Source: an uncultured virus (IMG/VR IMGVR_UViG_3300003478_000003) (Duplodnaviria; Heunggongvirae; Uroviricota; Caudoviricetes). From it: a stretch of 20,000 bases of DNA. Position numbers and translations under genes: made by a program. The DNA is taken from positions 55,456-75,455 of IMG/VR virus record IMGVR_UViG_3300003478_000003. The stretch is one strand, 5' to 3'. Position 1 is the stretch's first letter. The number at the start of each line of letters is the position of its first letter. Under the pieces are notes generated by a model, which ran no database searches, was not told the DNA's origin, and saw only the letters and a program-made list of their open reading frames with translations. Shown here one piece after another: positions 2,166 through 16,103 of this stretch.

Positions 2166-2561
2166 TTACTTGAATTGTTTGTTGTGTTCTATAAGAGCGT
2201 TATCTTGGTCTTTGTAGTATTCTTCGTAAGCAATAATAATTGCTTGCTGTTGTTGAACTAGTTTTCGAATAGCGGCCATGTTGAGAGATAAATTCTCATA
2301 ACCAGTATCGGTTAAACCAAATATTGCTCCATCTACGCTTTCTTTAGATAATTTGTGAAAAACATCATCTACATTTTCTGGTGTAACAATAATCCATTTA
2401 ACTTCTCTCTGATTAATTGTATCTGTACTTGGTAAATTTAATGGAACACGTACTGCTGGTTTTACTTGTATTGCTACTTTAGGTGGATTAGTGCTACACC
2501 CTGAGAGGGCAAATGGGCCTAAAGCAAGTATAGATGTACCTACAATAATTTCTTTTAACAT
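2166..2561 (-). CDS. Outer-membrane spanin (o-spanin, Rz1-like lipoprotein)
   Basis: Signal peptide with lipobox LSGC, Pro-rich segment, C-terminal helix YENLSLNMAAIRKLVQQQQAII..YEEYY; directly downstream of the i-spanin candidate. Confidence 0.72.
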   Translation of the reverse strand: MLKEIIVGTSILALGPFALSGCSTNPPKVAIQVKPAVRVPLNLPSTDTINQREVKWIIVTPENVDDVFHKLSKESVDGAIFGLTDTGYENLSLNMAAIRKLVQQQQAIIIAYEEYYKDQDNALIEHNKQFK

Positions 2562-3053
2562 TTACTCGTCCTCCTTGGGATGATAGTTTGGATTGGCTAC
2601 AGATGGACATTCTGTATTAATTTGACTTGGTTTTGTAGCAGTAATTTCTTTATTAGTTAAAGGACTACCACTGAGTATTTCAAAGCATCGCAATACCCTA
2701 GCAGATGCTTTACTTATTACTCTTTCAATTAATTTTGGTTTATTCTCAGCAAGTTTTCCAATGTCGCGTGTACCAAAATTAGCAGATAATTTACCAAATC
2801 TACCTACTAGATTGTCATAATCTTTTTGTGATTGTGCAAATCTTTGGTTTAAGTTGTCAACTACTTGTTGAATTTTTTCTCTGTCTCTGTCAGCCTGTGC
2901 TATTGCTTCATTTTGTAATGCAATTTTTGTATCTCTAACAGCTGCCTCGGCAATTAAAACGGCTTTTTCCTGTTGGGAATTTTGGTAGTACATGTAACCA
3001 CCACCGCCACCGATGCCCATGATGACTATTAGAATCATGACTATGTATGACAT
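2562..3053 (-). CDS. Inner-membrane spanin (i-spanin, Rz-like)
   Basis: Single N-terminal TM helix, long periplasmic coiled coil, LAENKPKLIERVI motif, two C-terminal Cys; SD GGAG at 3060-3063. Confidence 0.72.
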   Translation of the reverse strand: MSYIVMILIVIMGIGGGGGYMYYQNSQQEKAVLIAEAAVRDTKIALQNEAIAQADRDREKIQQVVDNLNQRFAQSQKDYDNLVGRFGKLSANFGTRDIGKLAENKPKLIERVISKASARVLRCFEILSGSPLTNKEITATKPSQINTECPSVANPNYHPKEDE

Positions 3054-3086
3054 AATTAACTCCTGCGTATAATAATATGCTACTAT

Positions 3087-3093
3087 TATTTAT
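3087..3093 (-). promoter_or_regulatory. Putative late promoter ATAAATA upstream of the spanin genes
   Basis: ATAAATA on the minus strand at the start of the 3054-3092 intergenic gap. Confidence 0.45.
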
Positions 3094-3875
3094 TACTTCA
3101 TAGGTACGCGGGCGTTAATTCTGAGTTGTTGTAACTGATCTTTAATATTTTGCTCTTTTGCTAGAAAAGAGTCATATTGTTCTGGGGTAACTGGAAGTGT
3201 GTTGTGTAATTCTTCCATCGTTAGTGTTTTACTGCTTTTATAATGTTTAAATGACCAATTATCAATGCCTGTTAGTTTTTCAACACCTGTTAACATTTCA
3301 GATAATACATCTTTGAATGTATCTTTACGTTCAAACTCTACAAATACAACGTAATCACCATCAATATTTTCACTTGAAATATTATCAGCATCTATAACAT
3401 CTGTATAACCACGCTCAACAAATGACATTAAGTCCTTTGCGGCATCATTATTTTTAACTTCCATTGCTAATACAATAACATCCTTATCTTCACCTAATTT
3501 GCTTTTATGTTTATCTACAAAAATTGTAGAATTTACAAGATCTGCCAAATCTAAAGCATTGAGGTCTTCATTAATTGGAGATTCGCCTAAATGAGTTAAG
3601 TCACTTGAAAAATCACCACCAATTTCTTGTGTTGTTATTGTATCTGTAACAGGTATAGTAGGATCTGCAGATATTACTTTTCTTGCTGTTGTATTTGATT
3701 TTGGATCGTTTGTTGTTATAGTAGTTATGTCTGGTTCCCCATCTACTCTTTTTGTAACAGTCTTTTTTGTAGGCCGTAAATTATCACGTATTTTAGCAAT
3801 ATTTGCTTTTTCTTTTATTTTCTTTTTAGCTACATTACTTAAATTATCTTCTAAAATTTCTCTAAAATTTTTCAT
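3093..3875 (-). CDS. Hypothetical phage protein (possibly virion-associated)
   Basis: 260-aa ORF with a Lys/Thr-rich N-terminal region followed by a globular alpha/beta domain; TAATG coupling with the upstream gene. Confidence 0.7.
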   Translation of the reverse strand: MKNFREILEDNLSNVAKKKIKEKANIAKIRDNLRPTKKTVTKRVDGEPDITTITTNDPKSNTTARKVISADPTIPVTDTITTQEIGGDFSSDLTHLGESPINEDLNALDLADLVNSTIFVDKHKSKLGEDKDVIVLAMEVKNNDAAKDLMSFVERGYTDVIDADNISSENIDGDYVVFVEFERKDTFKDVLSEMLTGVEKLTGIDNWSFKHYKSSKTLTMEELHNTLPVTPEQYDSFLAKEQNIKDQLQQLRINARVPMK

Positions 3876-4432
3876 TAGATCATTCCTCCTTCCATTTCTG
3901 GCTCCATAGCCATTTCTGGAGCGGCCGCAGCCTGAGCAAGATTTTCTTGTTCAGCTTGTTCAATATCCTCCAAATCTAATTTTTCACCTTCCAACTCTAC
4001 ATAACCACGTTCAATGTTTGTCATTAACTTGCGTGGAATTTTAATATTAACTATCCAAATTGGCGTTTCTTTAGTTTCAACTTTTTGATGAACTTCTTGT
4101 TCACCTGCTTTCTTTGGATATACGTTTAAGTCTTTAATAGGTTTTGTTAATTTAGACTTTCTATATGTTATAGTAATATCATAGTCTAGTAAGCGTTTTG
4201 CGCCAAGGGGATTGGGCATTAACTTACGTGGCCACATAAATTCACATTCTACAAAATAACGAGAATGGGTAGGACCAACAACTAATTCACCCTTATCCCA
4301 GTTTTCAAACACATATAAATCAAGTGTATCTAAAACACGTTCAAAATCTAGTAAATTTTCTAATGCGTTGTTACTTAAATAGATATTTTTAGTATTATCT
4401 AAAACGTCATATAATTCTATTTTATTGGCCAT
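3875..4432 (-). CDS. Hypothetical phage protein (LLDFERVLD..DLYVFENW type)
   Basis: ORF track gives 3875..4489; ATG 4432 (MANKIELY) is preferred because it avoids overlap with the upstream gene and sits 5 nt after ATAAATA. Acidic Met/Glu tail. Confidence 0.7.
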   Translation of the reverse strand: MANKIELYDVLDNTKNIYLSNNALENLLDFERVLDTLDLYVFENWDKGELVVGPTHSRYFVECEFMWPRKLMPNPLGAKRLLDYDITITYRKSKLTKPIKDLNVYPKKAGEQEVHQKVETKETPIWIVNIKIPRKLMTNIERGYVELEGEKLDLEDIEQAEQENLAQAAAAPEMAMEPEMEGGMI

Positions 4433-4436
4433 AATC

Positions 4437-4643
4437 TTATTTATCCAATTTACCCCATTGAATGTTATTCCATAAGCGTTCATAGCCATAGTATAAAACC
4501 ATTGTCAATATAGCACCTATTGTTAAAAGACCTGTTGACTTCCATGAACCTGTTACAGCATATGCAAGTATCGGCCAATATATAAAATTAAATACACGCC
4601 ATATAATTGTTTTAACTAATGTTCGTTTATGCGAGTCAGGCAT
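4437..4643 (-). CDS. DUF2061-like small membrane protein
   Basis: DSHKRTLVKTIIWRV...AYAVTGSW...LYYGYERLWNNIQWG matches the DUF2061 pattern; start reassigned to ATG 4643 (MPDSH). Confidence 0.78.
   Translation of the reverse strand: MPDSHKRTLVKTIIWRVFNFIYWPILAYAVTGSWKSTGLLTIGAILTMVLYYGYERLWNNIQWGKLDK
4438..4444 (-). promoter_or_regulatory. Putative late promoter ATAAATA, 5 nt upstream of ATG 4432
   Basis: Minus strand reads GATAAATA-AGATT-ATG. Confidence 0.5.
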
Positions 4644-5269
4644 TCGTCTCCGTCCAATATATCTTGTGTTTTGTTTGTTATAGTTCCAGTGCATTGTAAA
4701 AGACATCGAGGTTCCCACCCTGCATTAGCGGTGGCGTGTGGCATATTTGCCCAATCAAACCAAAACACATCTCCTGCTTGCCATCTGCATAAACTTGTGC
4801 CAAACTGTATAAAATGGCCAGGCTTCCAGTCTTCTAAAAATATTAAAAATCGGGATACTTTAGATGGATCATCATTCATTTCATATAGCTTATCAATATG
4901 TAAATTGACCATTTCACCTGGATATTGTATATGAAATGCTGTTTTAGAGTTTAATAACCCTAAACAATCTACCATAGTTTGCCATATTCCAGTAATGTCT
5001 CTTGAGCGGCGATACATGACTGTATCAGGGTTTTGACCAGCTCTAACTAAATCATTAACTTCAGTATCTAAACTAGCATCACTATTATGATAATTTTTCT
5101 TTCTAGTTTTCCAAGTAACTGGCTCAACACTATTTTTAATTTGCTGTAATTCATTGGACCAGTCGCCTATAAAACGAGTAACTTTTTTAAAATCAGTCTC
5201 TTGACTAGGCAAACTCCATTCAAAATGATAGTTACTTTGTGCTTTGCCAAGATCCCAGTTGCTTTCCAT
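4616..5269 (-). CDS. Fe(II)/2-oxoglutarate-type oxygenase (cupin/DSBH), paralog B
   Basis: HxD (LHIDKL)...H (PHATAN)...R (PRCLLQCTG). Start at ATG 5269 (MESNWD), with GGAG upstream. Confidence 0.7.
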   Translation of the reverse strand: MESNWDLGKAQSNYHFEWSLPSQETDFKKVTRFIGDWSNELQQIKNSVEPVTWKTRKKNYHNSDASLDTEVNDLVRAGQNPDTVMYRRSRDITGIWQTMVDCLGLLNSKTAFHIQYPGEMVNLHIDKLYEMNDDPSKVSRFLIFLEDWKPGHFIQFGTSLCRWQAGDVFWFDWANMPHATANAGWEPRCLLQCTGTITNKTQDILDGDECLTRINEH

Positions 5270-5270
5270 A

Positions 5271-5621
5271 CTAATATACTCCATCAAATATAAAATAATC
5301 TACAGTAAATGTTAGTTCAGCACCAATAAAAACTGCTAACCAATAATTATTTAACCAATCCCATAACTGCTTGATTACCCACCAAGCACATAATACTCTA
5401 ATAGAGTATACCACATCAGCCCATATTATGTCAAGCCATAAAAACGAATCTGCTTCAAAATAGTTGTAAAATAGGATATTGTCAGCTAAAAAACTTAATT
5501 GGGCCATAAAGAATACTGCCCAATAGTAAGTTATATATTTGTTTAAGAACTTAACTATTGGTCCGGAAACAACCAATCTATAAAGTACATAAATTATATT
5601 AGTGACAGCTAGTTCTATCAT
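5271..5621 (-). CDS. Small multi-pass membrane protein with internal two-fold repeat
   Basis: 116 aa, very hydrophobic; the halves YYWAVFFMAQLSFLADNILF and NYWLAVFIGAELTFTVDYFIF resemble each other; ATGA-coupled to the upstream gene. Confidence 0.65.
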   Translation of the reverse strand: MIELAVTNIIYVLYRLVVSGPIVKFLNKYITYYWAVFFMAQLSFLADNILFYNYFEADSFLWLDIIWADVVYSIRVLCAWWVIKQLWDWLNNYWLAVFIGAELTFTVDYFIFDGVY

Positions 5622-6268
5622 ACAGCGCCTTTCCGGTTACTTGCTAACTTTATTGTTTTATCTAATTTTGATTCTGCTTGTGATATGTATTTTTCATTAG
5701 CATCTTTAGATAATATTTCTGATAGTTTAGCATCATCTATTGTTACTTCATTTGGTAACAATCCTAGTTGTTTTTCTAACCATTGTAAATATCTTATCTC
5801 ATACAAGTATAATAACTCTTGACTAGCAAATACTGTTTTATGGTTAAGTGTTATACTAACTAACTGTTTTATAAAAAACGGTGTTGTATGTTTTCCTCTT
5901 ACACGTTCTTGCTGTAATTTTACAATATTACTATCTCTTCCTATTATAAGAAATTGAATTCTACAAAACTTCCTTGCTACTTCTATAAAACTATTATATG
6001 CTGGAATAGTTTCTACGCCATCATCAAAATAAGGACAACTAATACTTGTAATAAAATAATTGCTTTGTTCCCAATCAAATTCATTTAGCTTTGATGGATC
6101 TTTCCAACACTCTGCGAAAGGTTCTAAATCATGACCTTCCCAATACTTTTCTTGTAGTTTAGGCCATACAAATATATTTTTATTTTGTCCTAATGCTTTG
6201 CTGAATAAGTGATTACCACTACCTTGTGGTCCTGTCATTATTGTTAGTATTGGTTTCAACGTTAACAA
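5618..6268 (-). CDS. Sulfotransferase-like P-loop protein
   Basis: N-terminal strand plus loop IMTGPQGSGNH (5'-PSB-like) and FLIIGRD (3'-PB-like). TTG start, exact codon uncertain. Confidence 0.5.
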   Translation of the reverse strand: MLTLKPILTIMTGPQGSGNHLFSKALGQNKNIFVWPKLQEKYWEGHDLEPFAECWKDPSKLNEFDWEQSNYFITSISCPYFDDGVETIPAYNSFIEVARKFCRIQFLIIGRDSNIVKLQQERVRGKHTTPFFIKQLVSITLNHKTVFASQELLYLYEIRYLQWLEKQLGLLPNEVTIDDAKLSEILSKDANEKYISQAESKLDKTIKLASNRKGAV

Positions 6269-6274
6269 GACTTC

Positions 6275-7021
6275 TTACGCTAGTGTCCATACTGTATCAC
6301 TTGATCCATTAGCAATAATCTCTCTAGTCTTTTCAGATTTTAGTCCTGTAATCTGGATAATTGGTCTTGGGAAATTACTAGCATTCGCTGTGGCGTGTGG
6401 TGCATTTGCCCAATCAAAGATATGTGCCTCGCCAGCTTTCCATCTTTCATAGATAAAATTACCATACATATAAAACTGTCCTGGTCTCCAATCATCTAAG
6501 AAAAATGCAATACGACATATTTGTTCTGGATCATCAATACATCTATCCCATAGCTTATCAATATGTAAGTTAAACATTTGACCTGTTAATTGAACATGGG
6601 CTCTATATTTTAACTCGTCTTTACTGCCTATTACCCCAAAGTGTTCTTTCATTTTAACAAGCATTGGATAATCTTCTAACTCATCTTTCATATTTGTAAG
6701 CATAAGTTTTTTAGGATCTCCGCCTCCTTGTTCAATATCGTATTCTTCTTGTTTTAGCATTGGAGATTCGTCTTCTTTATCTCCATAGAATTTACGTGAT
6801 TCCCAATTAATTGCTTTAGTTGAATTTTCAACTAATCTATCTCTATCTTCTTTCCAAAGTTCAGGATTATCAAATCGGCCTAATACCTTAAACCATTCAC
6901 CTTCTTTATCTTTAACGTTATCATCAAAATGATATTCGCTATGTGCTACTGTCCAATCCCAGTTCGAATCGAATTCAGATGGGTCTTTTAAGGTTTTAGA
7001 CCAATCTGTTTTGTGTATCAT
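6275..7021 (-). CDS. Fe(II)/2-oxoglutarate-type oxygenase (cupin/DSBH), paralog A
   Basis: LHIDKL...FLDDWRPGQF...WKAGE..IFDWANAPHATANAS..PRPIIQITG; clear paralog of 4616..5269; ATGA-coupled to tctA. Confidence 0.7.
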   Translation of the reverse strand: MIHKTDWSKTLKDPSEFDSNWDWTVAHSEYHFDDNVKDKEGEWFKVLGRFDNPELWKEDRDRLVENSTKAINWESRKFYGDKEDESPMLKQEEYDIEQGGGDPKKLMLTNMKDELEDYPMLVKMKEHFGVIGSKDELKYRAHVQLTGQMFNLHIDKLWDRCIDDPEQICRIAFFLDDWRPGQFYMYGNFIYERWKAGEAHIFDWANAPHATANASNFPRPIIQITGLKSEKTREIIANGSSDTVWTLA

Positions 7022-8526
7022 GTGTAATCAAGTCCTTTGTCTTTTCTTACTAAACTATTTATGAATATGCCTAATGCTATTACAATACATACAAGGAAGA
7101 TAGGATGATTATAAATGTTAAATAATTCTCCCCATCTAAATCCTTCCATCGACGTTAAGCCTGGCTTCCATTGTTTGTAACCGTACAGTTGTAAGGTTCC
7201 CCAGAAGTATTCATCTATTTTAAATGCTACAACGTATGCAACTAGAATTGCCGGTCTACTAATGTTATATATTTTACATACAACACCAATAGCACTTAAT
7301 ATAGCAAGTAAGGCCAAGTCTTCCCAGCCACCTGTATATTGCATATTAGCATAAACAATTACTGCTAAAATAAATGTAGCATAAATCCAAAACGGAACTT
7401 CTAATATTTTAAGAATATATTTGTATAAGACTATACTCAACAATGCTACACCAACTGTTCCAAATATATAACCAAATGCCAGTGAATTTGTAAATTGTAA
7501 ATCTTGTAGTAAACTTGGTGTGCCAATCTCCATACCGAAGTACATACAGATTGCCATAACCATAGCCGCAAATGGTGCCGCAGGAATACCAAACAAACAA
7601 GCAGGTATCATACTAGATACTTTCTGTGCATTGTTGGCTCCTTCACAGCCTAGTAATCCTACAGGATTACCTTCACCAAATGGAACTTCTTGATCTTCTT
7701 CTTTGTGTGCGGCTTTGGTTGCACCGTATGCTAAGAAGTCACCTACTGCTCCTCCTACGCCTGGCAATAAGCCAGTTACGAATCCAATTAGTCCACCTCT
7801 AACCATATCTTTCCAATGTCGTTTGCAATCACCAAAACCTTGTTTCAGTCCTGTCCAATAATTTCCTTCTAACGGTGGTGCCGCTGATTTTAATTTCTTT
7901 CTGAATCCGTCTAATAATTCAGGAACTCCGAATAAGCCTGATAGTAGAACCACCATGCCAATTCCATTTTGTAAATATTCCCAACCGAATGTCAGTCTAG
8001 GATTACTTACAACATCTTCTCCTACCATACCTACTGCTAATCCGAATATGATTGCACAGATACTTAAGAAAACATTTTTACTTGCAACAAAGCCTACACA
8101 GGCTAGTGCCATTGTCATAAAGCCCAGAAACTCCGGGCGTCCAAATAATACTATAATTTTTCCATAGTATGGAAGTAAAAAGAAAGTTAATGCCGCAAAT
8201 ACAACACCATTAAATGTTGAATCAGCAATAGCAATTCCCATTGCTCTAGCGGCTTGACCTTTCTTTGCCATAGGATAACCGTCAATAACACATGCCGCAG
8301 TAGTACTAGCGCCAGGAATACCAGTAAGAATACTTGTATAACTATCTGCACTCGCACAACTTGCCACGATAGCAGTTAAAAAGACCAACCCCAAATAAGG
8401 GTCGGCCATAAAATATGCTCCCATGGTAAAGACAGTTATCAGAGCAGTAGTTACACCTGCGATAGGAATAATACCAACTAACATTCCATAACAAGTGCCA
8501 ACTAATGCCCAGATAACATATTCCAT
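7018..8526 (-). CDS. tctA: Tripartite tricarboxylate transporter large permease (TctA family)
   Basis: GxxxGxLVGIIP, SILTGIPG..TTAA..IDGYPMAKKGQAARA, IGFVTGLLPGVGG, EGANNA...SMIPACLFGIP: TctA signature motifs; about 500 aa, multi-pass. Confidence 0.9.
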   Translation of the reverse strand: MEYVIWALVGTCYGMLVGIIPIAGVTTALITVFTMGAYFMADPYLGLVFLTAIVASCASADSYTSILTGIPGASTTAACVIDGYPMAKKGQAARAMGIAIADSTFNGVVFAALTFFLLPYYGKIIVLFGRPEFLGFMTMALACVGFVASKNVFLSICAIIFGLAVGMVGEDVVSNPRLTFGWEYLQNGIGMVVLLSGLFGVPELLDGFRKKLKSAAPPLEGNYWTGLKQGFGDCKRHWKDMVRGGLIGFVTGLLPGVGGAVGDFLAYGATKAAHKEEDQEVPFGEGNPVGLLGCEGANNAQKVSSMIPACLFGIPAAPFAAMVMAICMYFGMEIGTPSLLQDLQFTNSLAFGYIFGTVGVALLSIVLYKYILKILEVPFWIYATFILAVIVYANMQYTGGWEDLALLAILSAIGVVCKIYNISRPAILVAYVVAFKIDEYFWGTLQLYGYKQWKPGLTSMEGFRWGELFNIYNHPIFLVCIVIALGIFINSLVRKDKGLDYT

Positions 8527-8536
8527 AGTGCTTTCC

Positions 8537-9592
8537 TTAGTCTAAAAGTTCAGGTTTGTAGATTGATGGGAAGCCATACGCTTCTTGGTTCCACTTCACC
8601 GCATCTCTTAGTGCTTTCTCTGTAATCAAAGATTTAAGAGCCGCTAATAGACTATCACCATCTTGAATCCAAGGATAAACACCTGTCTTAGCATAAATTT
8701 CTGCTGATGCAACTGGATCATTGATCATTGCAGTTACAGCCGATTTAACTTTTGCCGCATTTGGATTACCTTTGTTCATCCAAAGTGATTTTTGGATTGC
8801 GTCACGCCAGTTACGAGTAAGTTTATATGCTTGATATAAATCACCTGATGGTGCTTCGCCCCATAATCTTTCATACACATCTTCAAATTGTGTATTAGGG
8901 AAGTTAGGGTCATCCATTTGTATATTGTTTTCTAAGTCTAGGATACCGTGAGTGAACCATAGTTCATTACCTTCGATATCTGTATAGAAACGCTTCCATG
9001 CCGCTGGTGATTCACGTGCGATATCAAATTCACCATTTTGGAAACCTAGACGCTTTTCACCGCCTGATACACCGTTAACCCATACAACACGTTCTCTCCA
9101 ACATGTCAAGTAGGCATCGATTGAACCGTTTTCTTGTGGGCCACAGATTAACATTGCCGCCGCGGCCGCATCTGGTTCAAAACCTGACCCGCCTGCGATT
9201 GTCCAAGTGCCTGATTTTTCATCTTTACCTTCTTGTTTACCAAGAACGATATCATTATTCATTGAACCAATTAGTTCATAATCAAAATAATTGTATCTAA
9301 CTTTATCTAATAGAAACGATACACCGTTGCCACCGTGTGCAACCATGATTGTTTTATCATCAAAACGTAGACTATCGTGGAACTTGTTAAATCCAGGAAT
9401 ATCACGTGCGCCTGGAATGTGACGTACTACTACTGGTTCGCCTAGGAACTTTTCTAAGTTCTTAGCAATGATTTCACTCCAAACTGAAGTGCCCTTACCA
9501 GGTGCCTGTGGCACGATTAGGGTATAATCGGCTAACGCCGATGTTGCAATACCTATTGAAAGTATTGCCGAGATTAATAGTTTTTTAAACAT
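8537..9592 (-). CDS. tctC: Tripartite tricarboxylate transporter periplasmic binding protein (TctC/Bug-like)
   Basis: Sec signal peptide (MFKKLL...ALA), TLIVPQAPGKGTS...A..LEKFLGEPVVVRHIPGA, GGEKRLGFQNGEFD; adjacent to tctA; SD GGAG. Confidence 0.8.
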   Translation of the reverse strand: MFKKLLISAILSIGIATSALADYTLIVPQAPGKGTSVWSEIIAKNLEKFLGEPVVVRHIPGARDIPGFNKFHDSLRFDDKTIMVAHGGNGVSFLLDKVRYNYFDYELIGSMNNDIVLGKQEGKDEKSGTWTIAGGSGFEPDAAAAAMLICGPQENGSIDAYLTCWRERVVWVNGVSGGEKRLGFQNGEFDIARESPAAWKRFYTDIEGNELWFTHGILDLENNIQMDDPNFPNTQFEDVYERLWGEAPSGDLYQAYKLTRNWRDAIQKSLWMNKGNPNAAKVKSAVTAMINDPVASAEIYAKTGVYPWIQDGDSLLAALKSLITEKALRDAVKWNQEAYGFPSIYKPELLD

Positions 9593-9619
9593 TTGTTACT
9601 CCATTAATAAACTTCTTCA

Positions 9620-9805
9620 TTATATTCTCCTATGAATAATTGATTCTATTTTTACGAAAATAGCAAAATCTTCCCAACCTCCTGTATACTGTACACAAAC
9701 CCATATAACTATTGCAACGAGGCCTGTAGTCGCACCAGCACCGGGTATGATGCCGATTAATAGTCCATACAAAGTCCCGCCCAATAGAGCGATAATTTCA
9801 TTCAT
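9620..9805 (-). pseudogene. tctA: Internally deleted remnant of a second, divergent tctA
   Basis: Residues 1-29 align with the TctA N-terminus (GTLYGLLIGIIPGAGATTGL vs GTCYGMLVGIIPIAGVTTAL) and are joined in frame to VIWVCVQYTGGWEDFAIF, which matches TctA around residues 390-405 (IVYANMQYTGGWEDLALL). Confidence 0.78.
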
Positions 9806-9817
9806 AGGGGATAGTGT

Positions 9818-9852
9818 GTGTTAATGAACTTCCTAAGGAGCGTTACTAACAC
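9818..9852 (-). promoter_or_regulatory. Imperfect 35-nt stem-loop in the leader of the tct region
   Basis: Minus strand GTGTTAGT-AAC-GC-TCC-TTA-GGA-A-GTT-C-ATTAACAC; lies between ATAAATA (9867-9873) and ATG 9805. Confidence 0.45.
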
Positions 9853-9866
9853 TTGGTAGGTAAATA

Positions 9867-9873
9867 TATTTAT
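9867..9873 (-). promoter_or_regulatory. Putative late promoter ATAAATA upstream of the tct genes
   Basis: AATAAATA on the minus strand in the 9806-9886 intergenic region. Confidence 0.45.
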
Positions 9874-9886
9874 TGTATTATATAAT

Positions 9887-10813
9887 TTAGTCACAAAAAA
9901 TGGCAAAATTATTAATATTTCTATCAAACTTTATAATAATGTTATCATTTGTTTTTTCAAATTTATAAAAATAAGTTGCCCATACATCTTGATTCATTAA
10001 ATGTAATGAACTATTTTCTATATTAAAACAACCTATAATACCTAATAACATTGCACCATATTTGCCATTAGGTAAATTATTATTAATTTTCCACTCATAA
10101 TTTGTTGTAGGATTATGCATGTCAAATTTAATAACATTTCTTAATATAGTAGTCGTTGTTTTTAATGCAGAACTATATAATTGCATTAATAATCTATGTT
10201 TATCAGATTGTTCAGTGATAAATGGTCTAACATTATACTTCTGTTTTCCAAAATTTAGATCAAACAAATCACATGTGATGGAATAATTATCATCAATATC
10301 TTTAACTCCAGTTTCCATTTCAATGATTTTATTATTATGACTATCTATTATTTCAAACATTTCTGTATCAGTAAATAAAGCAAATGAGCCTAATAACGTA
10401 TCAGGTATTAATACAGCATGTCTTGTTGATTCATTGTATTTTATTAATCCATATAATTTACTAAGATCTATTCCAAAGAAATTACTTGTTATAAGTTCAC
10501 TTACTATTACGTCTATCTTGGGTAGTTTATCAATTAATTCTTGATCAAATTCAGCATGAATTATAGTATATTTTTCTTCAGGTATATTTGCTTTTTGAAA
10601 TATTCTTCCTGCCATCTCACAACAATCAATATTATGATCAATCATATATACATGCTTCGCACCAGAATGAATAGCAAATAAAGAAAGTACCCCGGATCCA
10701 GTTCCTATATCCAAACATATTTTATCATTACAAGAACTTTTTATTTGTTTATAATACCAATTATTCCTGTGACGATTAGTGAATAACATTTCATGATTAT
10801 ATGTTGTTACCAT
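9887..10813 (-). CDS. SAM-dependent methyltransferase, PRMT-like
   Basis: HEML...RNNWY, CLDIGTGSGVLSLFA..SGAKHVY, KIDVIVSEL, VLIPD followed by a beta-rich C-terminal half: the layout of protein-arginine methyltransferases. Confidence 0.7.
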   Translation of the reverse strand: MVTTYNHEMLFTNRHRNNWYYKQIKSSCNDKICLDIGTGSGVLSLFAIHSGAKHVYMIDHNIDCCEMAGRIFQKANIPEEKYTIIHAEFDQELIDKLPKIDVIVSELITSNFFGIDLSKLYGLIKYNESTRHAVLIPDTLLGSFALFTDTEMFEIIDSHNNKIIEMETGVKDIDDNYSITCDLFDLNFGKQKYNVRPFITEQSDKHRLLMQLYSSALKTTTTILRNVIKFDMHNPTTNYEWKINNNLPNGKYGAMLLGIIGCFNIENSSLHLMNQDVWATYFYKFEKTNDNIIIKFDRNINNFAIFCD

Positions 10814-11919
10814 GTTTCAAAAGGTTCTATTCTATAATCTTTATCTACGGCATCTCTTTCTGAATAAAGAATTGTATTAACTGTTACAATATATCTTTCA
10901 TCTGTATGATTTTTTCTAATCCAATGATTTAAGTAGCCAGGCCATATATTCATCATTCCAGATTTGGGTTGAATCTCAAATTCTTCAATTCGATACTCGT
11001 CCATATTATCTGTTCCTATATGATCAAGACCTTTCCTATATGAATGACTAGCTACTATAGCCTGAGTACTTGGATGCTCAAATACTATTGGAGCTGAATC
11101 TTCATCAACATATGGATACCACGCTCCCACAATCACCGCACCAGGATGAAAATGCATTTTAATAGAATCTAATTTCTTATACGACACAAACCAACTGCTT
11201 GATATTAGAACTCTAGGTAAATTAAACTTAACACAGTGCTCATCAAATGCAGTTTGAAAAGTTAACCACAGTGGGTATAACTCAGGAATTGATAATAATT
11301 TTTTATCAGATAATAATTTAGTCATCTCTTGTTTTTCATAATAATCACCCATCATTTCTATAATACGATCCGTACATACATGTTTTTTGATAAATCTAGT
11401 ACTAAATGGTATTTTAAAAATCTCTGGATAATTTACTTCTTCTTTATTAAACTTTTCTAACTTTAATACTTTTCTATATGGATATAATGGCATAGTAAAA
11501 CTTATTTCAAGTTCAGGATTTTCTGTATGTACTGAACCCACCAAATCTGTGCAACCTATTATTATAATACTGTTAGCCGAAATACTACGTATATTAATAC
11601 AACACGAAAGTTCTGTGTCGGTAAATACAACTCTTATTTTATGTGTGCTTGTTGTATCGCGGTCGTTATGGTTGTCCAATTCAACTATAAATTTATAACA
11701 ACTGCTGTCTGCCCCGCTCTCATTTTTAGGAACATCATTTCCTGCTTTAATTCCAGTCCATTCTGGCAATAGAGTATTAACCGTCTTCTTAATCTCTCGC
11801 ACTTCTATGTTCTCTTCGATCAATACATCATCAAAAAATATTGACATTCTTGGATATTGATTATTTTCAACACCATATTCTTCCACAAATATTGCAATAA
11901 TGTTATCTTCTAGCGCCAT
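10807..11919 (-). CDS. Two-domain protein: unknown N-terminal domain plus C-terminal putative Fe(II)/2OG oxygenase (TIGR02466-like)
   Basis: SSWF...HFHPGAVIVGAWY...IVFEHP...PKSGMMNIWPGYLNHWI..N...RYIVTVN; start likely ATG 11919 (MALEDN). Confidence 0.7.
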   Translation of the reverse strand: MALEDNIIAIFVEEYGVENNQYPRMSIFFDDVLIEENIEVREIKKTVNTLLPEWTGIKAGNDVPKNESGADSSCYKFIVELDNHNDRDTTSTHKIRVVFTDTELSCCINIRSISANSIIIIGCTDLVGSVHTENPELEISFTMPLYPYRKVLKLEKFNKEEVNYPEIFKIPFSTRFIKKHVCTDRIIEMMGDYYEKQEMTKLLSDKKLLSIPELYPLWLTFQTAFDEHCVKFNLPRVLISSSWFVSYKKLDSIKMHFHPGAVIVGAWYPYVDEDSAPIVFEHPSTQAIVASHSYRKGLDHIGTDNMDEYRIEEFEIQPKSGMMNIWPGYLNHWIRKNHTDERYIVTVNTILYSERDAVDKDYRIEPFETW

Positions 11920-11921
11920 AA

Positions 11922-12599
11922 TTATTTCTTTGACCAAACAAAATACATTCTTTCTTTGTAATCGTTTCTCAAATCTAATACATCTACTTTTAAAAAGTCA
12001 GCACAGTTAATTATAAATGTTGGTGTCCATTCATAAAAAGATATCCAACTGGATTCTGTTGGTATATGCGTTAGTCCTGGGTTTACTCTAAAATATATTT
12101 TACCACCAGGCGTTGTTAATTTTACTATATGCTCTAACTCTTTTAATATTTTATCAGTTGATCCAAAGTTAATTGAACCTAAGCACATAACTACATCAAA
12201 TGTTTCAGAAGGATGATAATCTAAAATACTTACTTTAATATCTGCGTGACTATTATATGGGTCAATACCTATTAGGTTGTCTATTTTACTTTTAAACTCG
12301 TTATAGCCACAGCCAACGTCTAACACACTACGTGGTTTTAAACTATTAATCTCATCCACTAATGCTAATCCACTGTGCTTATATTTTTTAGTTTCAGACT
12401 GCCATACATTACTAAAGTATTTTTCCAATACTTTGTCATCAATTTTATTAACTAATTCGCCAGTATTGTCAAAACTAACATCCTCAACCCATACGTCAAA
12501 CATACCTTGTATAGACTGCCGTAGTTTGTGATCATCTCGCAAGATTTGAGGAGATGTTTTAAACATATCCTCTAATGCATTAAGTATTTTTATATTCAT
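11922..12599 (-). CDS. Class I SAM-dependent methyltransferase
   Basis: VLDVGCG (motif I), LIGIDPY, FDVVMCLGSINF, LTTPGGKIYF; ATGA-coupled to TDO. Confidence 0.82.
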   Translation of the reverse strand: MNIKILNALEDMFKTSPQILRDDHKLRQSIQGMFDVWVEDVSFDNTGELVNKIDDKVLEKYFSNVWQSETKKYKHSGLALVDEINSLKPRSVLDVGCGYNEFKSKIDNLIGIDPYNSHADIKVSILDYHPSETFDVVMCLGSINFGSTDKILKELEHIVKLTTPGGKIYFRVNPGLTHIPTESSWISFYEWTPTFIINCADFLKVDVLDLRNDYKERMYFVWSKK

Positions 12600-13111
12600 T
12601 TATCCCACAAATTTTTATCAACTGTTTGTTTTAAATACTTTACTCCAGATGTGCCTCCAGTCCCAGGCTTATCCCCTATAATGCGTTCTACAGTTTTCAT
12701 ATGATTAAACTGCCATTTTTTAAACGCATTTTCTACATCGCATAACGCTTCACGTGGAAATAAACTTGTATTTGGACAACATTTGCTGGGTAAATCTCTC
12801 AATAACTGTTCTACTTCTATATATTGTGTTGATTGTTTGCCTGACGCTGAGCCTAGTGTGCTTCTAAATCTCTCGTAGTCTTGTGGGGTAAGTGTTGCTA
12901 TAATGTCCCACAATGTATTTAAGTGATTGAATATTTTGGCAATGCGTTTTAGATCTGGATTAGTAGCAATGCTTAATTCGCGTATTAATACTTTAAACCA
13001 TAATTCGGATGCTTGGTGTGCAACTATAAACATCAGTTCATTGCGATCCGATGTTATTGTGTTTTGTGAATTTAATATTGTATCTAGATCTAAATAATCG
13101 CCATAATTCAT
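12596..13111 (-). CDS. kynA: Tryptophan 2,3-dioxygenase family protein, compact (171 aa)
   Basis: YGDYLDLDTILNSQ, ELMFIVAHQASELWFK, TLTPQDYERFRSTLGSASGKQSTQY, WQFNHMKTVERIIG.KPGTGGTSGVKYL. Start at ATG 13111 overlaps the upstream TGA. Confidence 0.88.
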   Translation of the reverse strand: MNYGDYLDLDTILNSQNTITSDRNELMFIVAHQASELWFKVLIRELSIATNPDLKRIAKIFNHLNTLWDIIATLTPQDYERFRSTLGSASGKQSTQYIEVEQLLRDLPSKCCPNTSLFPREALCDVENAFKKWQFNHMKTVERIIGDKPGTGGTSGVKYLKQTVDKNLWDK

Positions 13112-13743
13112 ATTACGCACACTTTAATATCTTCTGCCTTATAACTTTGGTGTACACCTTCTATAGGACACTTTATATTTAACAAATTGCACGTATCAAA
13201 ACTGTCTATCGCATTAAATTTTGCTTTATTAACTGCCATAAATGCTTTAATATTTTTATTTTGTAAAGCAATCTCTGCCTTCATCTTTTTCTCGTTTTCA
13301 TACCATTCATAACTAGGATACGAGATTTCAAATCCGCCTGCCTGCATCCACCAATCATAGCATTTCTTGTTTGTTCTATACGTCAAAACTATTTTGCTAT
13401 TAGGCCATTCTGTTTTTATATATTGTAAATTGTGTGCTAATGTGTGGCTTTTAATAATCCTGTATTTGTCTCTGCGTAAAATACCACTAAATGCTTTATT
13501 AAACTCTGCTTCGTTTTGTTTTTTATTGTGCTTATCTATGCTATCAAACCAATTACCAAATTCCATACCTGGATCAAAATAAGAGCCACTGTGTTTTGCT
13601 TTATAATCACTAAGTTGTGGCCCGCCTAAATATTCACGGTGGGGAGCGGCGTCTGTTTGATCTATATCAACAGATTCGTATATATGAGCGGCAACACTAC
13701 TCCAACGTGATCCTGGCGCTCCTACTAAGAAAATATAACTCAT
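13108..13743 (-). CDS. Sulfotransferase-like protein
   Basis: YIFLVGAPGSRWS (5'-PSB-like), IIKSH, WPNSKIVLTYR (3'-PB-like). Confidence 0.55.
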   Translation of the reverse strand: MSYIFLVGAPGSRWSSVAAHIYESVDIDQTDAAPHREYLGGPQLSDYKAKHSGSYFDPGMEFGNWFDSIDKHNKKQNEAEFNKAFSGILRRDKYRIIKSHTLAHNLQYIKTEWPNSKIVLTYRTNKKCYDWWMQAGGFEISYPSYEWYENEKKMKAEIALQNKNIKAFMAVNKAKFNAIDSFDTCNLLNIKCPIEGVHQSYKAEDIKVCVI

Positions 13744-14549
13744 ATATTAAATTCATCCTTTATGCTTTGTGGTGTTACATACAACCACCTACCAATTAGA
13801 AGTTTACAAACTTGTATCTGATGTGCTGTTAATTCTCTATTAATAAATTTTTCAATATGTTCCTGCCAAGTCCCTTCCCATATAGATTCTATAGGAAACA
13901 TGTTCAATTTATTCTTATAATTATTTAATATATCCGTTATATAAATATTTCTTTCAAAATTTCCAGTGTATAAATCTTCATAATTTATTTCACCACACAC
14001 TTTTTCATCCTCACATAATCTAAGAAATTTATATGGTGTAGTTACAAACAGAACTTTACTTGGATCAAATAACAAGTCTGATAATTTAATAATATCCATA
14101 ATATTATCTCCGTCATATATCCACGGTTCTTCTACTGGTTCGCCAGCGGCTATACCCCATAAAGGGTTGCTGGCTTGCCGCCGTATTATGTAATTACAGT
14201 GATAATATTTTACTCTCATTCTAAAATCTGCTACACTGTATAGTTTAGTATCTTTATTGATAGTTCTTTGCAATAATTCATGTACATCTTTTTCTAATAA
14301 AAAACCATCAAAATGATTTTCATACAAATCATAAAAAGAATTACACAATATTCCTATATCAGGCGGAGTTAATTCATGATTTTTCCATTCAAGTGGCTTA
14401 TTTTTTAATGTCAATGGAAATCGATTTAAAGCATCTACCGCATGTGATGGAGATTTGGATTTGCGCTGATCATGCGCTAGTTGTAATAACCAGGAAACCA
14501 AAAAACCACCAGAGCCACCTTGATAGCGCACTACAAACTTACGTTCCAT
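13740..14549 (-). CDS. Hypothetical protein, possibly sulfotransferase-like fold
   Basis: Start reassigned to ATG 14549 (MERKFVVRYQGGSGGFLVSWLL): beta strand plus Gly-rich loop plus helix at the N-terminus; ATAAATA 5 nt upstream. Confidence 0.5.
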   Translation of the reverse strand: MERKFVVRYQGGSGGFLVSWLLQLAHDQRKSKSPSHAVDALNRFPLTLKNKPLEWKNHELTPPDIGILCNSFYDLYENHFDGFLLEKDVHELLQRTINKDTKLYSVADFRMRVKYYHCNYIIRRQASNPLWGIAAGEPVEEPWIYDGDNIMDIIKLSDLLFDPSKVLFVTTPYKFLRLCEDEKVCGEINYEDLYTGNFERNIYITDILNNYKNKLNMFPIESIWEGTWQEHIEKFINRELTAHQIQVCKLLIGRWLYVTPQSIKDEFNI

Positions 14550-14554
14550 GTGAA

Positions 14555-14561
14555 TATTTAT
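14555..14561 (-). promoter_or_regulatory. Putative late promoter ATAAATA, 5 nt upstream of ATG 14549
   Basis: Minus strand reads AATAAATA-TTCAC-ATG; a second TATAAATA lies at 14594-14601. Confidence 0.5.
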
Positions 14562-14596
14562 TCGAAGAGCACCCGAACAAATCGTATTAGTGATAT

Positions 14597-14914
14597 TTAT
14601 ATTCCTGTTTGATCGAGTAGTCGCAAATCCTCTGATAACCAATCAATAGGCCGAGCATGCCAGTGTAAATGATCTGGAATACTTCGTTGTTTTTTATCTA
14701 TATAATAATTGCCTGATCCATATTTCTTATCACCAACACATGTTAAAGCATATTCCATCTCATTGTAATCTTTAACAGGTATAGACATCGTGTGCGATGC
14801 CCGCCAAACGACCATAGGCACCACACACGACATGCAATCTAATATGATCCAACGTGGATCATGATCTTCATATAAATGAATTATTGTATGCAATTTGCAT
14901 AATTCACACGTCAT
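14597..14914 (-). CDS. HIT-like (histidine triad) protein
   Basis: N-terminal CELC, YED, second CxxC (CMSC) and C-terminal IPDHLHWHAR (HxHxH). Confidence 0.65.
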   Translation of the reverse strand: MTCELCKLHTIIHLYEDHDPRWIILDCMSCVVPMVVWRASHTMSIPVKDYNEMEYALTCVGDKKYGSGNYYIDKKQRSIPDHLHWHARPIDWLSEDLRLLDQTGI

Positions 14915-15669
14915 TATTCATCTCCGTAAATTCGTAGTACCTCCTCTACAACGACGTGGCGTCTTATATCTCGGTTATTAAAATGAACCATATCTATATG
15001 CCTACATTCATTATACCTCTCAAGTAAATCTTGAAATTCGTATAATCCATTGTCATGGTATCTATCACTTTGGTCCAAATCTCCTGTAACTACCATACGG
15101 GAATCATCACCTATTCTTGTTAATAACATTTTCATTTGATTTCGTGTAGCATTTTGCATCTCATCTGCGATAATAAATGCTCTTTTAAATGTTCGTCCTC
15201 TCATATATGCTAGTGGAGATATTTCAACAATACCTTCATCTATCATACGTGATATGTTTTTTGGTGAATAATACTCTTGAAAGATATCAAAAATTGGGCG
15301 TGTCCATGGTTCCATTTTTTGTTGGATAGTGCCGGGTAAGAAGCCATGTTGTTCGTCAACTTCTACTGCTGGGCGGGTTAGTACAATTTTATCTACCTTG
15401 TTTTCTGAGTATGCTTTAAGTGCGGCTAAACATGCTAACATTGTTTTGCCAGTTCCTGCTGGGCCACATGCAAATACTATCGCATTGGCTGGATTAGTTA
15501 ATAAGTTGATATAATCTTGTTGATTAAGTGATCTTGCTTTTAGTTTTATGTTTGGTTTTTTTAGTGTGTTTTTTGGTTTTCCATAATATTTTTCAAATTC
15601 AATAATTTTTTCGTCCATATAGTCGTAATGTGTGCTACGGCGTTTAGGACGACTTTTACGTTTTGACAT
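14914..15669 (-). CDS. phoH: PhoH-like ATPase
   Basis: GPAGTGKT, LTRPAVE, GFLPG, ISPLAYMRGRTF, DEMQN, LTRIG, TGDLDQSD, DIRRH; SD GAGGTG at 15674-15679. Confidence 0.95.
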   Translation of the reverse strand: MSKRKSRPKRRSTHYDYMDEKIIEFEKYYGKPKNTLKKPNIKLKARSLNQQDYINLLTNPANAIVFACGPAGTGKTMLACLAALKAYSENKVDKIVLTRPAVEVDEQHGFLPGTIQQKMEPWTRPIFDIFQEYYSPKNISRMIDEGIVEISPLAYMRGRTFKRAFIIADEMQNATRNQMKMLLTRIGDDSRMVVTGDLDQSDRYHDNGLYEFQDLLERYNECRHIDMVHFNNRDIRRHVVVEEVLRIYGDE

Positions 15670-15798: not shown

Positions 15799-16101
15799 AT
15801 GACAGATGATGAATATGATGCGGTGTACTCACTGCTGAGAGAAGGACTTAATTCAATTCCGTTTAATCAACGTGTGCATTCCGGGTCTTGGAAAGAACTA
15901 TTAGCACATATCAGTCTTAAGCATACTAATCCAGGAAAGTGTCAAACCTGTGATCACAAGTGTCATGGTTATGCTGGTGTAGGCGAACGCGTCAGCGGCC
16001 ATTGCGGAAGTGATAATTGCGATTGTAAAAATTGTCGCTGTAATTTGTGTCAGCTTAAATACGGTAGAGGGTTTAGTAATTTAACTATCCCTATAAAATA
16101 A
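15799..16101 (+). CDS. Small Cys/His-rich protein (metallothionein-like or RiPP-precursor-like)
   Basis: Nine Cys clustered in the C-terminal half (CQTCDHKCH...HCGSDNCDCKNCRCNLC); Cys-free N-terminal half; 2 nt before the radical SAM gene. Confidence 0.65.
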   Translation: MTDDEYDAVYSLLREGLNSIPFNQRVHSGSWKELLAHISLKHTNPGKCQTCDHKCHGYAGVGERVSGHCGSDNCDCKNCRCNLCQLKYGRGFSNLTIPIK

Positions 16102-16103
16102 TT

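Follow-up and report, generated by a model that had tools for sequence, protein, structure and literature searches.

A conserved kernel of a predicted TTT-type importer and enzymes in the auxiliary gene island of an uncultured marine jumbo phage related to T4

In the flexible genomic islands of SAR11 bacteria, transporters of the tripartite tricarboxylate transporter (TTT) and TRAP families, together with their neighbouring enzymes, form swappable cassettes, with several versions per island; the TTT systems described there are cellular tctCBA operons that include TctB, and the main text of the paper mentions no sulfotransferase (PMC11796062). A review of the TTT family notes that TctB is poorly conserved, has no known function, and is missing from archaea. 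Among viruses, the only tctA that we found in the literature, with supplementary files outside the search, is a domain hit in SUP05 viruses, given as a putative auxiliary gene of unknown role (Roux et al. 2014, PMC4164917). Here, we describe an island of 14 co-directional minus-strand open reading frames (ORFs), including tctA, at positions 4437-14642 of a 20,000-nucleotide stretch of viral DNA (hereafter, the window). The window is the last 20 kb (positions 55,456 to 75,455) of the 75,455-bp IMG/VR virus record IMGVR_UViG_3300003478_000003, which has an estimated completeness of 21% and comes from an uncultured marine jumbo T4-like phage. The locus is a mosaic auxiliary island that consists of a conserved kernel and lineage-specific cargo.

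The island resembles TTT systems (TC 2.A.80) in that its permease matches the Pfam TctA family over its full length and adjoins a predicted secreted protein that is probably a remote relative of TctC; the Gly/Pro motif that the TTT review places in transmembrane segments (TM) 1 and 7 is also visible in the translation of the window TctA. It differs in that it is virus-borne, has no TctB match, encodes a putative binding protein outside the Pfam TctC family, and has its permease gene translationally coupled to that of a predicted oxygenase. As in the SAR11 islands, the transporter and its neighbouring enzymes behave as a swappable cassette, and the swapping described there parallels the replacement of one tctA type by another in the window (see below). 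The tctA of the SUP05 viruses is likewise reported alongside phoH and a 2-oxoglutarate (2OG)-Fe(II) oxygenase, whereas neither partner genes nor a binding protein are described in the text of that article.

The rest of the contig is T4-like and rich in auxiliary genes, with genes for a family-B DNA polymerase, a clamp loader, ClpP, a ClpB-like ATPase, DnaJ, peptide deformylase, and GTP cyclohydrolase I, among others. The island lies between phoH (14914-15669) and, on the other side, two virion-protein PHROGs and two Rz-like spanins (2166-4489). An earlier reading of the letters and ORF translations of the window (the sequence-only reading) had listed these genes at this place as a co-directional, mostly translationally coupled run, and this description held: the 14 ORFs mostly overlap, with junctions, in transcription order, of -4, -13, -4, -16, -7, +81, +27, +10, -4, +6, -4, -17, and -28 nt. 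That reading had also named a host/phage chimera as a possible source of error. The contig is no such chimera: four other viral contigs (38-322 kb) carry the island with 99-100% identity, flanked by phage genes on both sides. The ORFs are as follows, in transcription order.

13740..14642, minus strand: P-loop A, a 300-aa ORF with a probable start at 14549 (269 aa) and a Gly-rich loop near its N-terminus
13108..13743, minus strand: P-loop B, 211 aa, sulfotransferase fold nearest to tyrosylprotein sulfotransferases
12596..13120, minus strand: mini tryptophan 2,3-dioxygenase (mini-TDO), 174 aa from a GTG or 171 aa from a conserved Met
11922..12599, minus strand: MT225, a 225-aa class-I S-adenosylmethionine (SAM) methyltransferase
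10807..11937, minus strand: 2OG-Fe(II)_Oxy_5 protein, 376 aa with the domain C-terminal; lineage-specific cargo
9887..10813, minus strand: SAM methyltransferase resembling protein arginine methyltransferases (PRMT-like), 308 aa; lineage-specific cargo
9606..9906, minus strand: type-2 tctA scar, comprising a 61-aa ORF (9620-9805) and its upstream region
8537..9592, minus strand: TctC-like periplasmic binding protein (putative), 351 aa with an N-terminal signal-like segment
7018..8526, minus strand: TctA permease, 502 aa, PF01970
6275..7021, minus strand: LHIDKL_A, a 248-aa predicted Fe(II)/2OG oxygenase, AspH-like
5618..6268, minus strand: P-loop C, 206-216 aa, sulfotransferase fold
5271..5621, minus strand: hydrophobic (membrane) protein, 116 aa
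4616..5287, minus strand: LHIDKL_B, 223 aa, a paralogue of LHIDKL_A at 35-36% identity
4437..4718, minus strand: DUF2061 small membrane protein, probable start 4643, PF09834 at 3.9e-10

The family calls of the sequence-only reading were upheld by Pfam for TDO, TctA, 2OG_Oxy_5, and DUF2061; the match of the SAM methyltransferase was weak, and 'tctC' could be reached through intermediates only. Of its three sulfotransferase-like proteins, P-loop B and P-loop C have the fold, while P-loop A has neither a family match nor similarity to P-loop B. Three points go beyond that reading: the TDO is shortened (174 aa), the 61-aa ORF is the scar of a tctA, and TctB has no match. A megablast search with the whole cluster against deposited phages returned no match. 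The scan for promoters and terminators returned 57 sites versus 64.4 expected and 5 versus 5.1 expected, respectively; since these counts are not above expectation, no operon boundaries can be read from them. The G+C content is 0.39-0.41 over tctC-tctA (window 7500-9500) versus 0.27-0.33 around it, which may reflect the composition of membrane and secreted proteins or a foreign origin.

To define the kernel, ORFs within 7 kb of tctA were clustered at 28 viral loci and one locus from a cellular collection, and loci with TctA proteins at least 98% identical were merged, giving 20 lineages (19 viral and one GC-rich contig of a metagenome-assembled genome, MAG). TctA relatives were found at 31 viral loci with 77-100% identity, several of them on contigs >300 kb. 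Within these 7 kb, a TctC-like gene and an LHIDKL gene are each present in 19 of the 20 lineages and P-loop C in 18; among those that lack TctC or P-loop C are loci truncated at contig ends (L027 and L037). MT225 follows with 14/20 lineages, and then a kinase/nucleotidyltransferase gene pair (12/20, absent in the window lineage), P-loop B (9/20), DUF2061 (9/20, an undercount, as the ORF caller dropped the copy of the window lineage), radical SAM/SPASM genes (8/20), DUF6552 (7/20), and the 116-aa membrane protein (3/20). The commonest order is MT225, TctC, TctA, LHIDKL, DUF2061, P-loop C, kinase, transferase, and DUF6552, and genes outside this set are entirely different from lineage to lineage. 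The tctA stop is overlapped by 1-8 nt by the LHIDKL start in the window, L015, L029, L022, L016, L033, L024, L040, and L044. The last of these is a 10.5-kb contig of G+C 0.55 (33% here) that was binned with a Chitinophagales MAG; it also encodes a LuxR-type regulator and may be cellular or viral. Its proteins are 32% (P-loop B), 35-45% (MT225), 58% (TctC), 60% (TctA), 38-44% (LHIDKL), 41% (P-loop C), and 33% (DUF2061) identical to their counterparts. The TctC-like protein, TctA, the LHIDKL oxygenase, P-loop C, and usually the SAM methyltransferase are thus a co-inherited, co-selected unit. The cargo comprises the P-loop B resembling tyrosylprotein sulfotransferases (TPST-like), P-loop A, the 2OG-Oxy_5 and PRMT-like genes, the second LHIDKL paralogue, and the mini-TDO; the TDO, 2OG-Oxy_5, and PRMT-like genes are specific to individual lineages.

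Selection on the kernel was estimated from the ratio of nonsynonymous to synonymous divergence (dN/dS) by the Nei-Gojobori method against eight relatives, at dS from 0.3 to saturation (>2). The values were 0.04-0.10 for TctA (dS 0.4 to >1.7), 0.07-0.12 for TctC, 0.10-0.21 for LHIDKL_A, and 0.12-0.27 for P-loop C; all four genes are under strong purifying selection. TctA and TctC are 84-96% identical between relatives versus 49-83% for PhoH, and the combination of low dN/dS with high dS indicates that this reflects constraint and not recent transfer. Within one genome pair, neighbouring genes differ in dS (in the comparison with L022, P-loop C has 0.35 and TctA 0.83), which points to recombination between modules.

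These data bear on whether the genes share a substrate at all. The island could be a hypervariable drop zone, in which genes accrete and their linkage reflects common descent and insertion-site preference. Such accretion would explain the mosaic dS of adjacent genes, the lineage-specific occurrence of TDO, 2OG-Oxy_5, PRMT-like, and P-loop A genes, the TDO neighbours that differ in every other context, the many unrelated flanking genes of the relatives (ClpX, ClpS, IF3, S21, HSP20, PNP, lipase), and the replacement of one cassette type by another. It does not account for a kernel that is kept in 18-19 of 20 lineages while its flanks change wholly, that recurs at 32-60% identity on a contig of 55% G+C, that conserves the tctA/LHIDKL overlap, and whose genes are all under purifying selection, and we consider it quite unlikely as an account of the whole island. 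The proposal of a transporter and tailoring unit in the sequence-only reading, which pointed to co-occurrence in related genomes as its check, therefore stands for the kernel, co-inherited in 18-19/20 lineages; the TDO, 2OG-Oxy_5, and PRMT-like genes are lineage-specific add-ons that do not co-occur with it across lineages, and for these the proposal is refuted by that same check.

The 502-aa permease belongs to the TctA family of 12-TM permeases by its Pfam match (PF01970, 1.4e-86, 291 bits versus a cut-off of 28.9; the alignment runs from position 2 to 422 of the 423 in the profile). In a tblastn search of deposited phages, TctA gave only matches of at most 31% identity, in unannotated or enteric records, and a scan of 185,579 species genomes, made with exact peptide patterns and so not reaching the more distant cellular relatives, turned up nothing more than 60% identical to this lineage. 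For the TctC-like protein, a direct match to PF03401 was obtained for none of 13 family members. An exhaustive profile search collected 357 relatives, and 9 of the 35 full-length ones scanned matched PF03401; all nine are distant and one, P0222, is above the cut-off (30.3 bits versus 27). In addition, 27 of the 30 nearest named Atlas clusters fall in a set where PF03401 is found in 10-17% of the members. The protein begins with a signal-like hydrophobic segment, and its gene adjoins tctA in 19/20 lineages, at a distance of 10 nt in the window. We filed this 351-aa product as a putative, very divergent TctC-type binding protein.

No match to TctB (PF07331) was detected among the window ORFs or in any of five large relatives at E <=0.1. 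Its place could be taken by the 116-aa membrane protein, by DUF2061, or by DUF6552. The first has homologues of 53-61% identity in three of the 20 lineages and no family match in Pfam, PHROG, or NCBIfam. The DUF2061 genes of the relatives (66-72 aa) lie between LHIDKL and P-loop C, and in L044 the DUF2061 gene adjoins the kinase-transferase gene. As a separate observation, tables in three papers list DUF2061 genes among those induced by iron limitation or regulated by Fur in Caulobacter, Shewanella, and Vibrio parahaemolyticus. This small membrane protein may thus have a link to metals, which is kept as a lead only, as the cassette offers no test of it.

The 61-aa ORF between the PRMT-like gene and tctC is a tctA deletion scar, as judged from its alignment to a sister phage, L007. 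By blastn, window positions 9873-9710 correspond to L007 11870-12033 (94%), 9721-9653 to L007 13081-13149 (87%), and 9659-9606 to L007 13348-13401 (100%); in the type-2 tctA of L007, these are the beginning, an internal stretch late in the gene, and the end. At the protein level, residues 1-36 and 29-51 of the ORF match residues 1-36 and 382-404 of the L007 type-2 TctA. A sigma70-like site (9906-9877, 11/12) lies upstream of the scar, although such sites are not above chance overall. L007 shares with the window PhoH (92%), the clamp loader (96%), and P-loop B, TDO, and MT225 (90-91%), and carries a type-2 TctA-TctC pair (L007:11938-14100, tctA then tctC) that is 42-45% identical to the pair of the window. 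The same tctA-then-tctC order is seen in the MAG contigs L045 and L046 (38-46% identity). From the scar and the L007 pair, we infer that a type-1 TTT cassette displaced a type-2 cassette at the same site, and this displacement argues that selection maintains an importer there.

The LHIDKL proteins are predicted to be AspH-like Fe(II)/2OG oxygenases. In 19 aligned sequences, H153 and D155 are invariant and H209 and R219 are present in at least 90%, giving the HxD/E...H metal triad and a basic residue for 2OG; LHIDKL_B aligns with the same HxD...H...R columns. Asp_Arg_Hydrox matches are sub-threshold and occur in 3 of 19 members (LHIDKL_B, 0.0029, 17.9 bits, below the cut-off of 22.6). In the Atlas, the family lies among clusters made up of viral proteins only; its nearest named neighbour is PF05118, and 7 of 30 neighbours fall in a PF05118 set. 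The LHIDKL profile found nothing significant among Protein Data Bank (PDB) sequences, the best being a C-terminal motif of AtsK at E 0.27. In the window, the start of LHIDKL_A overlaps the tctA stop by 4 nt. The other oxygenase of the island matches PF13759 (8.7e-11, residues 247-348) and phrog_81 (1.1e-21) and was found only in the window's own near-identical contigs.

Predicted models of P-loop B and P-loop C adopt a sulfotransferase fold. This verdict rests on VIA-align, as Foldseek alone gave weak E-values for both models. The best structural matches of P-loop B are tyrosylprotein sulfotransferases (TPSTs; 5wrj, 3ap1-3), and the top match of P-loop C is the sulfotransferase of CurM/olefin synthases (4gbm, 4gox); the phage proteins are 10-14% identical to these and ~70 residues shorter. 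No Pfam sulfotransferase family matched the window proteins or, at E <=5, the 14 P-loop C members, and only one of the 120 P-loop B relatives listed carries PF13469. Profiles of both proteins and of the TctC-like protein likewise gave nothing significant against PDB sequences; the best matches in this set of searches, apart from AtsK, were chance ones to antibodies. Both contain a conserved N-terminal Gly-rich loop and mid-protein Arg/Asp or Lys-Ser-His motifs, which may correspond to the 5'-phosphosulfate-binding and 3'-phosphate-binding motifs of PAPS-dependent sulfotransferases. P-loop A has no Pfam, PHROG, or NCBIfam match and no similarity to P-loop B by hhalign; its only homologue is in L007 (53% identity).

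In 12 of the 20 lineages, the gene after P-loop C encodes a P-loop kinase of 141-167 aa, and it is followed by a transferase of 123-158 aa with an HxGH motif close to the N-terminus and an ISAT-K-I-R motif close to the C-terminus. In AT-rich phages, these are two ORFs (~141 and ~136 aa), and in L044 (7350-8388) the kinase and HxGH nucleotidyltransferase are fused into 277 aa, with a stop overlapping the DUF2061 gene. The kinase profile matches adenosine 5'-phosphosulfate (APS) kinases and 3'-phosphoadenosine 5'-phosphosulfate (PAPS) synthases over residues 3-83 (best 4.4e-8; PF01583 above cut-off). The transferase profile matches archaeal-type nicotinamide mononucleotide adenylyltransferases (NMNATs) of the HxGH type (6.5e-4), and no canonical ATP sulfurylase or CysD was above cut-off in any of five large relatives. 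P-loop C and the two genes would fit a line of sulfate activation and transfer. Bacterial sets of this kind combine PAPS supply with a sulfotransferase, as do NodP/NodQ with NodH and RaxP/RaxQ with RaxST. The relatives share with them a sulfotransferase-fold gene followed by APS-kinase-like and adenylyltransferase-type genes. They differ in that the transferase is a 123-158-aa NMNAT-type HxGH protein and not of the CysDN or Sat type, in that the phage set is tied to an importer, and in that the window lineage has no supply pair.

MT225 matches Methyltransf_23 weakly (6.8e-6, 26.3 bits versus a cut-off of 27), and its homologues (35-90% identity, 14/20 lineages) mostly lie immediately upstream of tctC. 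The 308-aa protein has a PRMT-type SAM-binding domain: it matches PrmA (6.2e-7), and 58 of the 60 PDB matches listed are protein arginine methyltransferases (best 9.3e-10). The similarity is confined to residues 23-108, with alignments ending at 108-121 of 308, which is the SAM-binding half. Its homologues were found only in the L024 lineage (52% and 33%).

Exact-match contigs from four metatranscriptome libraries of three studies cover parts of the island, namely tctC, tctA, LHIDKL_A, P-loop B, the 2OG5/PRMT-like junction, the scar, DUF2061, and phoH, and one of them spans the tctC/tctA junction. These contigs, which show neither strand nor level, are consistent with transcription of the island but are no proof of it; stretches that they do not cover (e.g., 5062-5823, 10015-10395, and 11158-12300) are uninformative on expression.

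That importer and enzymes form a co-selected module is the firmer part of our interpretation. What the module does is a matter on which we lean, with modest confidence, towards a phage importer whose anionic solute is hydroxylated, sulfated, and methylated. During infection, the phage would equip the cell to take up an anionic organic solute with high affinity. The system for this would be a TTT-type importer of two components, TctA and a very divergent TctC-like protein that is secreted, with no recognisable TctB. In the cytoplasm, the solute may then be hydroxylated by the AspH-like Fe(II)/2OG oxygenase that is translationally coupled to TctA, O-sulfated from PAPS by a sulfotransferase-fold protein, and methylated. 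PAPS would come from the host in the window lineage and maybe from the phage kinase/transferase pair in relatives. The logic of import followed by oxidation, sulfation, or methylation, already present in the sequence-only reading, is reasonable because the kernel is co-inherited, occurs on a contig of 55% G+C, and has dN/dS of 0.04-0.27.

Several observations weigh against this solute-tailoring scheme. The TctC-like protein has no direct Pfam, NCBIfam, or PDB sequence match. P-loop B and P-loop C align by hhalign over only a 27-column P-loop, with a probability of 6.6%. The kinase/transferase pair has no match in the window-lineage genome G001 (90% complete) and could instead be a NadR-like NAD-salvage pair. 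The gene order of the cassette varies among relatives and, together with the unequal dS, shows that it is assembled from separable modules. The RNA-library contigs may come from contaminating DNA. Finally, the TPST-, AspH-, and PRMT-like relatives of the enzymes modify proteins, which would fit a protein target better.

This last point leads to a different substrate. The TPST-, AspH-, and PRMT-like enzymes, with radical SAM/SPASM enzymes, could modify a phage or host protein or peptide, the candidates being the adjacent virion proteins or a product resembling ribosomally synthesised and post-translationally modified peptides, and the transporter would be separate or serve the peptide. The structural matches of P-loop B to tyrosylprotein sulfotransferases, the Asp/Asn beta-hydroxylase family as nearest named neighbour of LHIDKL, and the 58 of 60 listed PRMT matches of the 308-aa methyltransferase all favour such a target. 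So do the radical SAM/SPASM genes of 8/20 lineages, the twitch radical SAM gene with its 100-aa ORF at 15799-17594, and the position of the island, which abuts virion-protein genes in the window, L019, L024, L038, and L040. However, neither a precursor peptide nor a target was identified, and TctC-TctA as the most conserved and constrained part, as well as the coupling of oxygenase and TctA, would go unexplained. Moreover, the PRMT-like similarity is to the SAM-binding half only, and the sulfotransferase fold does not separate protein from small-molecule acceptors, P-loop C having the CurM/olefin-synthase domain as its top match. We regard protein modification as unlikely, although it is an account to be taken seriously.

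The 496-aa radical SAM protein at this locus has an N-terminal twitch domain (NF033640, 278.8 bits); its gene follows the 100-aa ORF on the plus strand, adjoining phoH. Radical SAM genes also lie beside the mini-TDO in L057 and L060. In L057 (6971-8662), a 563-aa frame combines a mini-TDO that stops ~15 residues short with a SPASM/radical SAM protein that begins at its own Met. This apparent fusion was set aside as probably a deletion that joined two genes, being present in one contig only.

The TDO of the island matches PF03301 in two stretches (1.5e-43, 149.9 bits versus a cut-off of 34.9) and TIGR03036 at 175.9 bits, below the equivalog cut-off of 390.7. Against the Cupriavidus TDO (2nox_A, 8.9e-39), residues 21-139 and 222-270 are aligned; a 13-residue linker takes the place of ~80 residues (2nox 140-221), and the first long loop is also shorter. 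The complete TDO helical core of ~260-300 residues is thus not present, and the gap is common to all 27 short forms in an alignment with five longer forms (32 sequences, including four full-length bacterial TDOs). His35, Tyr82, Arg86, and His140 are invariant in all 32, and the Gly-rich loop is conserved. These residues align with the equivalent stretches of 2nox and 2nw7 and would be the haem-ligand His, the distal His, and the substrate-binding Tyr and Arg; N-terminal Tyr/Leu residues, also conserved, would complete the active site of the neighbouring subunit, as in TDO tetramers. Bacterial TDOs (2nox, 2nw7/2nw8, 1yw0) share with it the Gly-rich loop and the segments that contain the Tyr/Arg pair and the distal and proximal His residues. 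They differ in length (264-306 aa versus 171-174 aa for the mini-TDO), and the mini-TDO has a family-specific Phe-to-Lys change in the SG(F/K)QS stretch, a sub-equivalog score, and no kynurenine-pathway neighbours. Among the best 120 homologue clusters, 74 are short (101-214 aa, 45-93% identity), but two of these, of 101 and 161 aa, may be fragments, as they match only 56-63% of the query; the remaining 46 clusters are 259-296 aa long and mostly match ~60% of the query at ~50% identity. The conserved residues, the shared short form, and pairwise dN/dS of 0.08-0.30 indicate that the mini-TDO is a maintained family and not a fresh pseudogene.

The distribution of this gene decides whether the cluster is centred on it, as the sequence-only reading had proposed. 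Viral TDO loci numbered 7 initially and 12 with a profile: four near-identical copies of the island, the sister phage L007, and seven others. These seven contigs have no TctA, TctC, LHIDKL, or P-loop homologue within 7 kb; what surrounds the TDO there includes genes for a lipase, for purine synthesis, and for radical SAM proteins, as well as the gp32 region. Conversely, TDO is present in only one of the 20 type-1 TctA lineages, plus L007. Its site is exactly between P-loop B and MT225, two genes that are directly adjacent and overlapping in L019 and L024. A tblastn search of TDO against deposited phages gave no match, and a literature search on TDO as an auxiliary metabolic gene found no paper on a viral TDO. 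In a tryptophan- or kynurenine-centred pathway, TDO would open tryptophan and the neighbouring methyltransferase, oxygenases, and sulfotransferases would tailor the product. The conserved key residues of TDO and its coupling in the window, with the P-loop B stop overlapping the TDO start by 13 nt and the TDO stop overlapping the MT225 start by 4 nt, are as such a pathway would predict. However, TDO is absent from 19/20 type-1 lineages that keep the module, P-loop B and MT225 adjoin without it in L019 and L024, it lacks module partners in the seven other viral contigs, and kynurenine formamidase was found in none of the five TDO-bearing viral records. The distribution largely refutes such a pathway, which we now hold to be barely credible; TDO stands by itself as a single-step gene rather than at the centre of the module.

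TDO is also the first step of the route from tryptophan to NAD. It could thus feed the kynurenine route while the importer takes up a pyridine carboxylate (nicotinate or quinolinate) and the kinase and NMNAT-like pair makes NAD. This reading draws on TDO as the start of that route and on the transferase half, which matches NMNATs best. The TTT binding proteins Bug27 and Bug69 of Bordetella, which are reported to bind quinolinate (PMC11452294), would also be in line with it. The kinase half, however, matches APS kinases and not ribosylnicotinamide kinases (AAA_28 at only 3.8e-4), TDO and the kinase/transferase pair never occur together in the lineages examined, and no other kynurenine-pathway gene was seen in the five TDO-bearing records. 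The sulfotransferase-fold genes, the oxygenase, and the methyltransferase would also be left unexplained, and we regard an NAD-precursor theme as very improbable.

Some further observations stand apart from these questions. In two contigs (L059:7770-9668 and L060:7546-11126), the mini-TDO immediately precedes genes of purine synthesis (IMPDH/GMP-reductase-like, SAICAR synthetase, PurF-like, and PurD); as a speculative idea, formate from N-formylkynurenine may feed purine synthesis. In L014, L028-L030, and L032, genes for ClpX, ClpS, IF-3, ribosomal protein S21, and HSP20 lie upstream of tctC, an unusual translation and proteostasis set for a phage. At the other end of the window (1-964, minus strand), a fumarylacetoacetate-hydrolase-family gene, cut by the window start, lies beside a glyoxalase/VOC-dioxygenase-family gene, a pair that resembles late steps of aromatic (homogentisate-type) catabolism; a SAR11 paper describes a similar enzyme set beside a TRAP transporter. 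In the interval between phoH and P-loop A, a 105-aa ORF (14597-14914, minus strand) has an N-terminal CxxC and a C-terminal His-x-His-x-His and is HIT-like by eye; it has no family match, and homologues of 79-89% identity are found in L007 and L024.

In its most ambitious form, our interpretation would join a TctB-less importer, coupled to an oxygenase and feeding a sulfation line in which the tiny NMNAT-type enzyme of the relatives is a new ATP sulfurylase, with a catalytically active mini-TDO, the smallest working TDO scaffold, that has spread through ocean phages as a self-contained means of opening host tryptophan; we are doubtful that all of these parts hold together. Phage auxiliary genes are usually single host-derived enzymes, and here a whole predicted uptake system is kept with tailoring enzymes by strong purifying selection in many giant ocean phages, and no close counterpart of its transporter lineage from cells turned up in the collections searched. 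The cassette is a natural experiment on whether TTT transporters are able to function without TctB. The mini-TDO illustrates the extent to which the TDO scaffold can be reduced with its catalytic residues kept, making it an attractive model of a minimal haem dioxygenase. Under this scheme, infected cells would be made to import one particular dissolved compound and to change it chemically. If true, this would be a new viral route that shapes marine dissolved organic matter and, possibly, the flow of sulfur.

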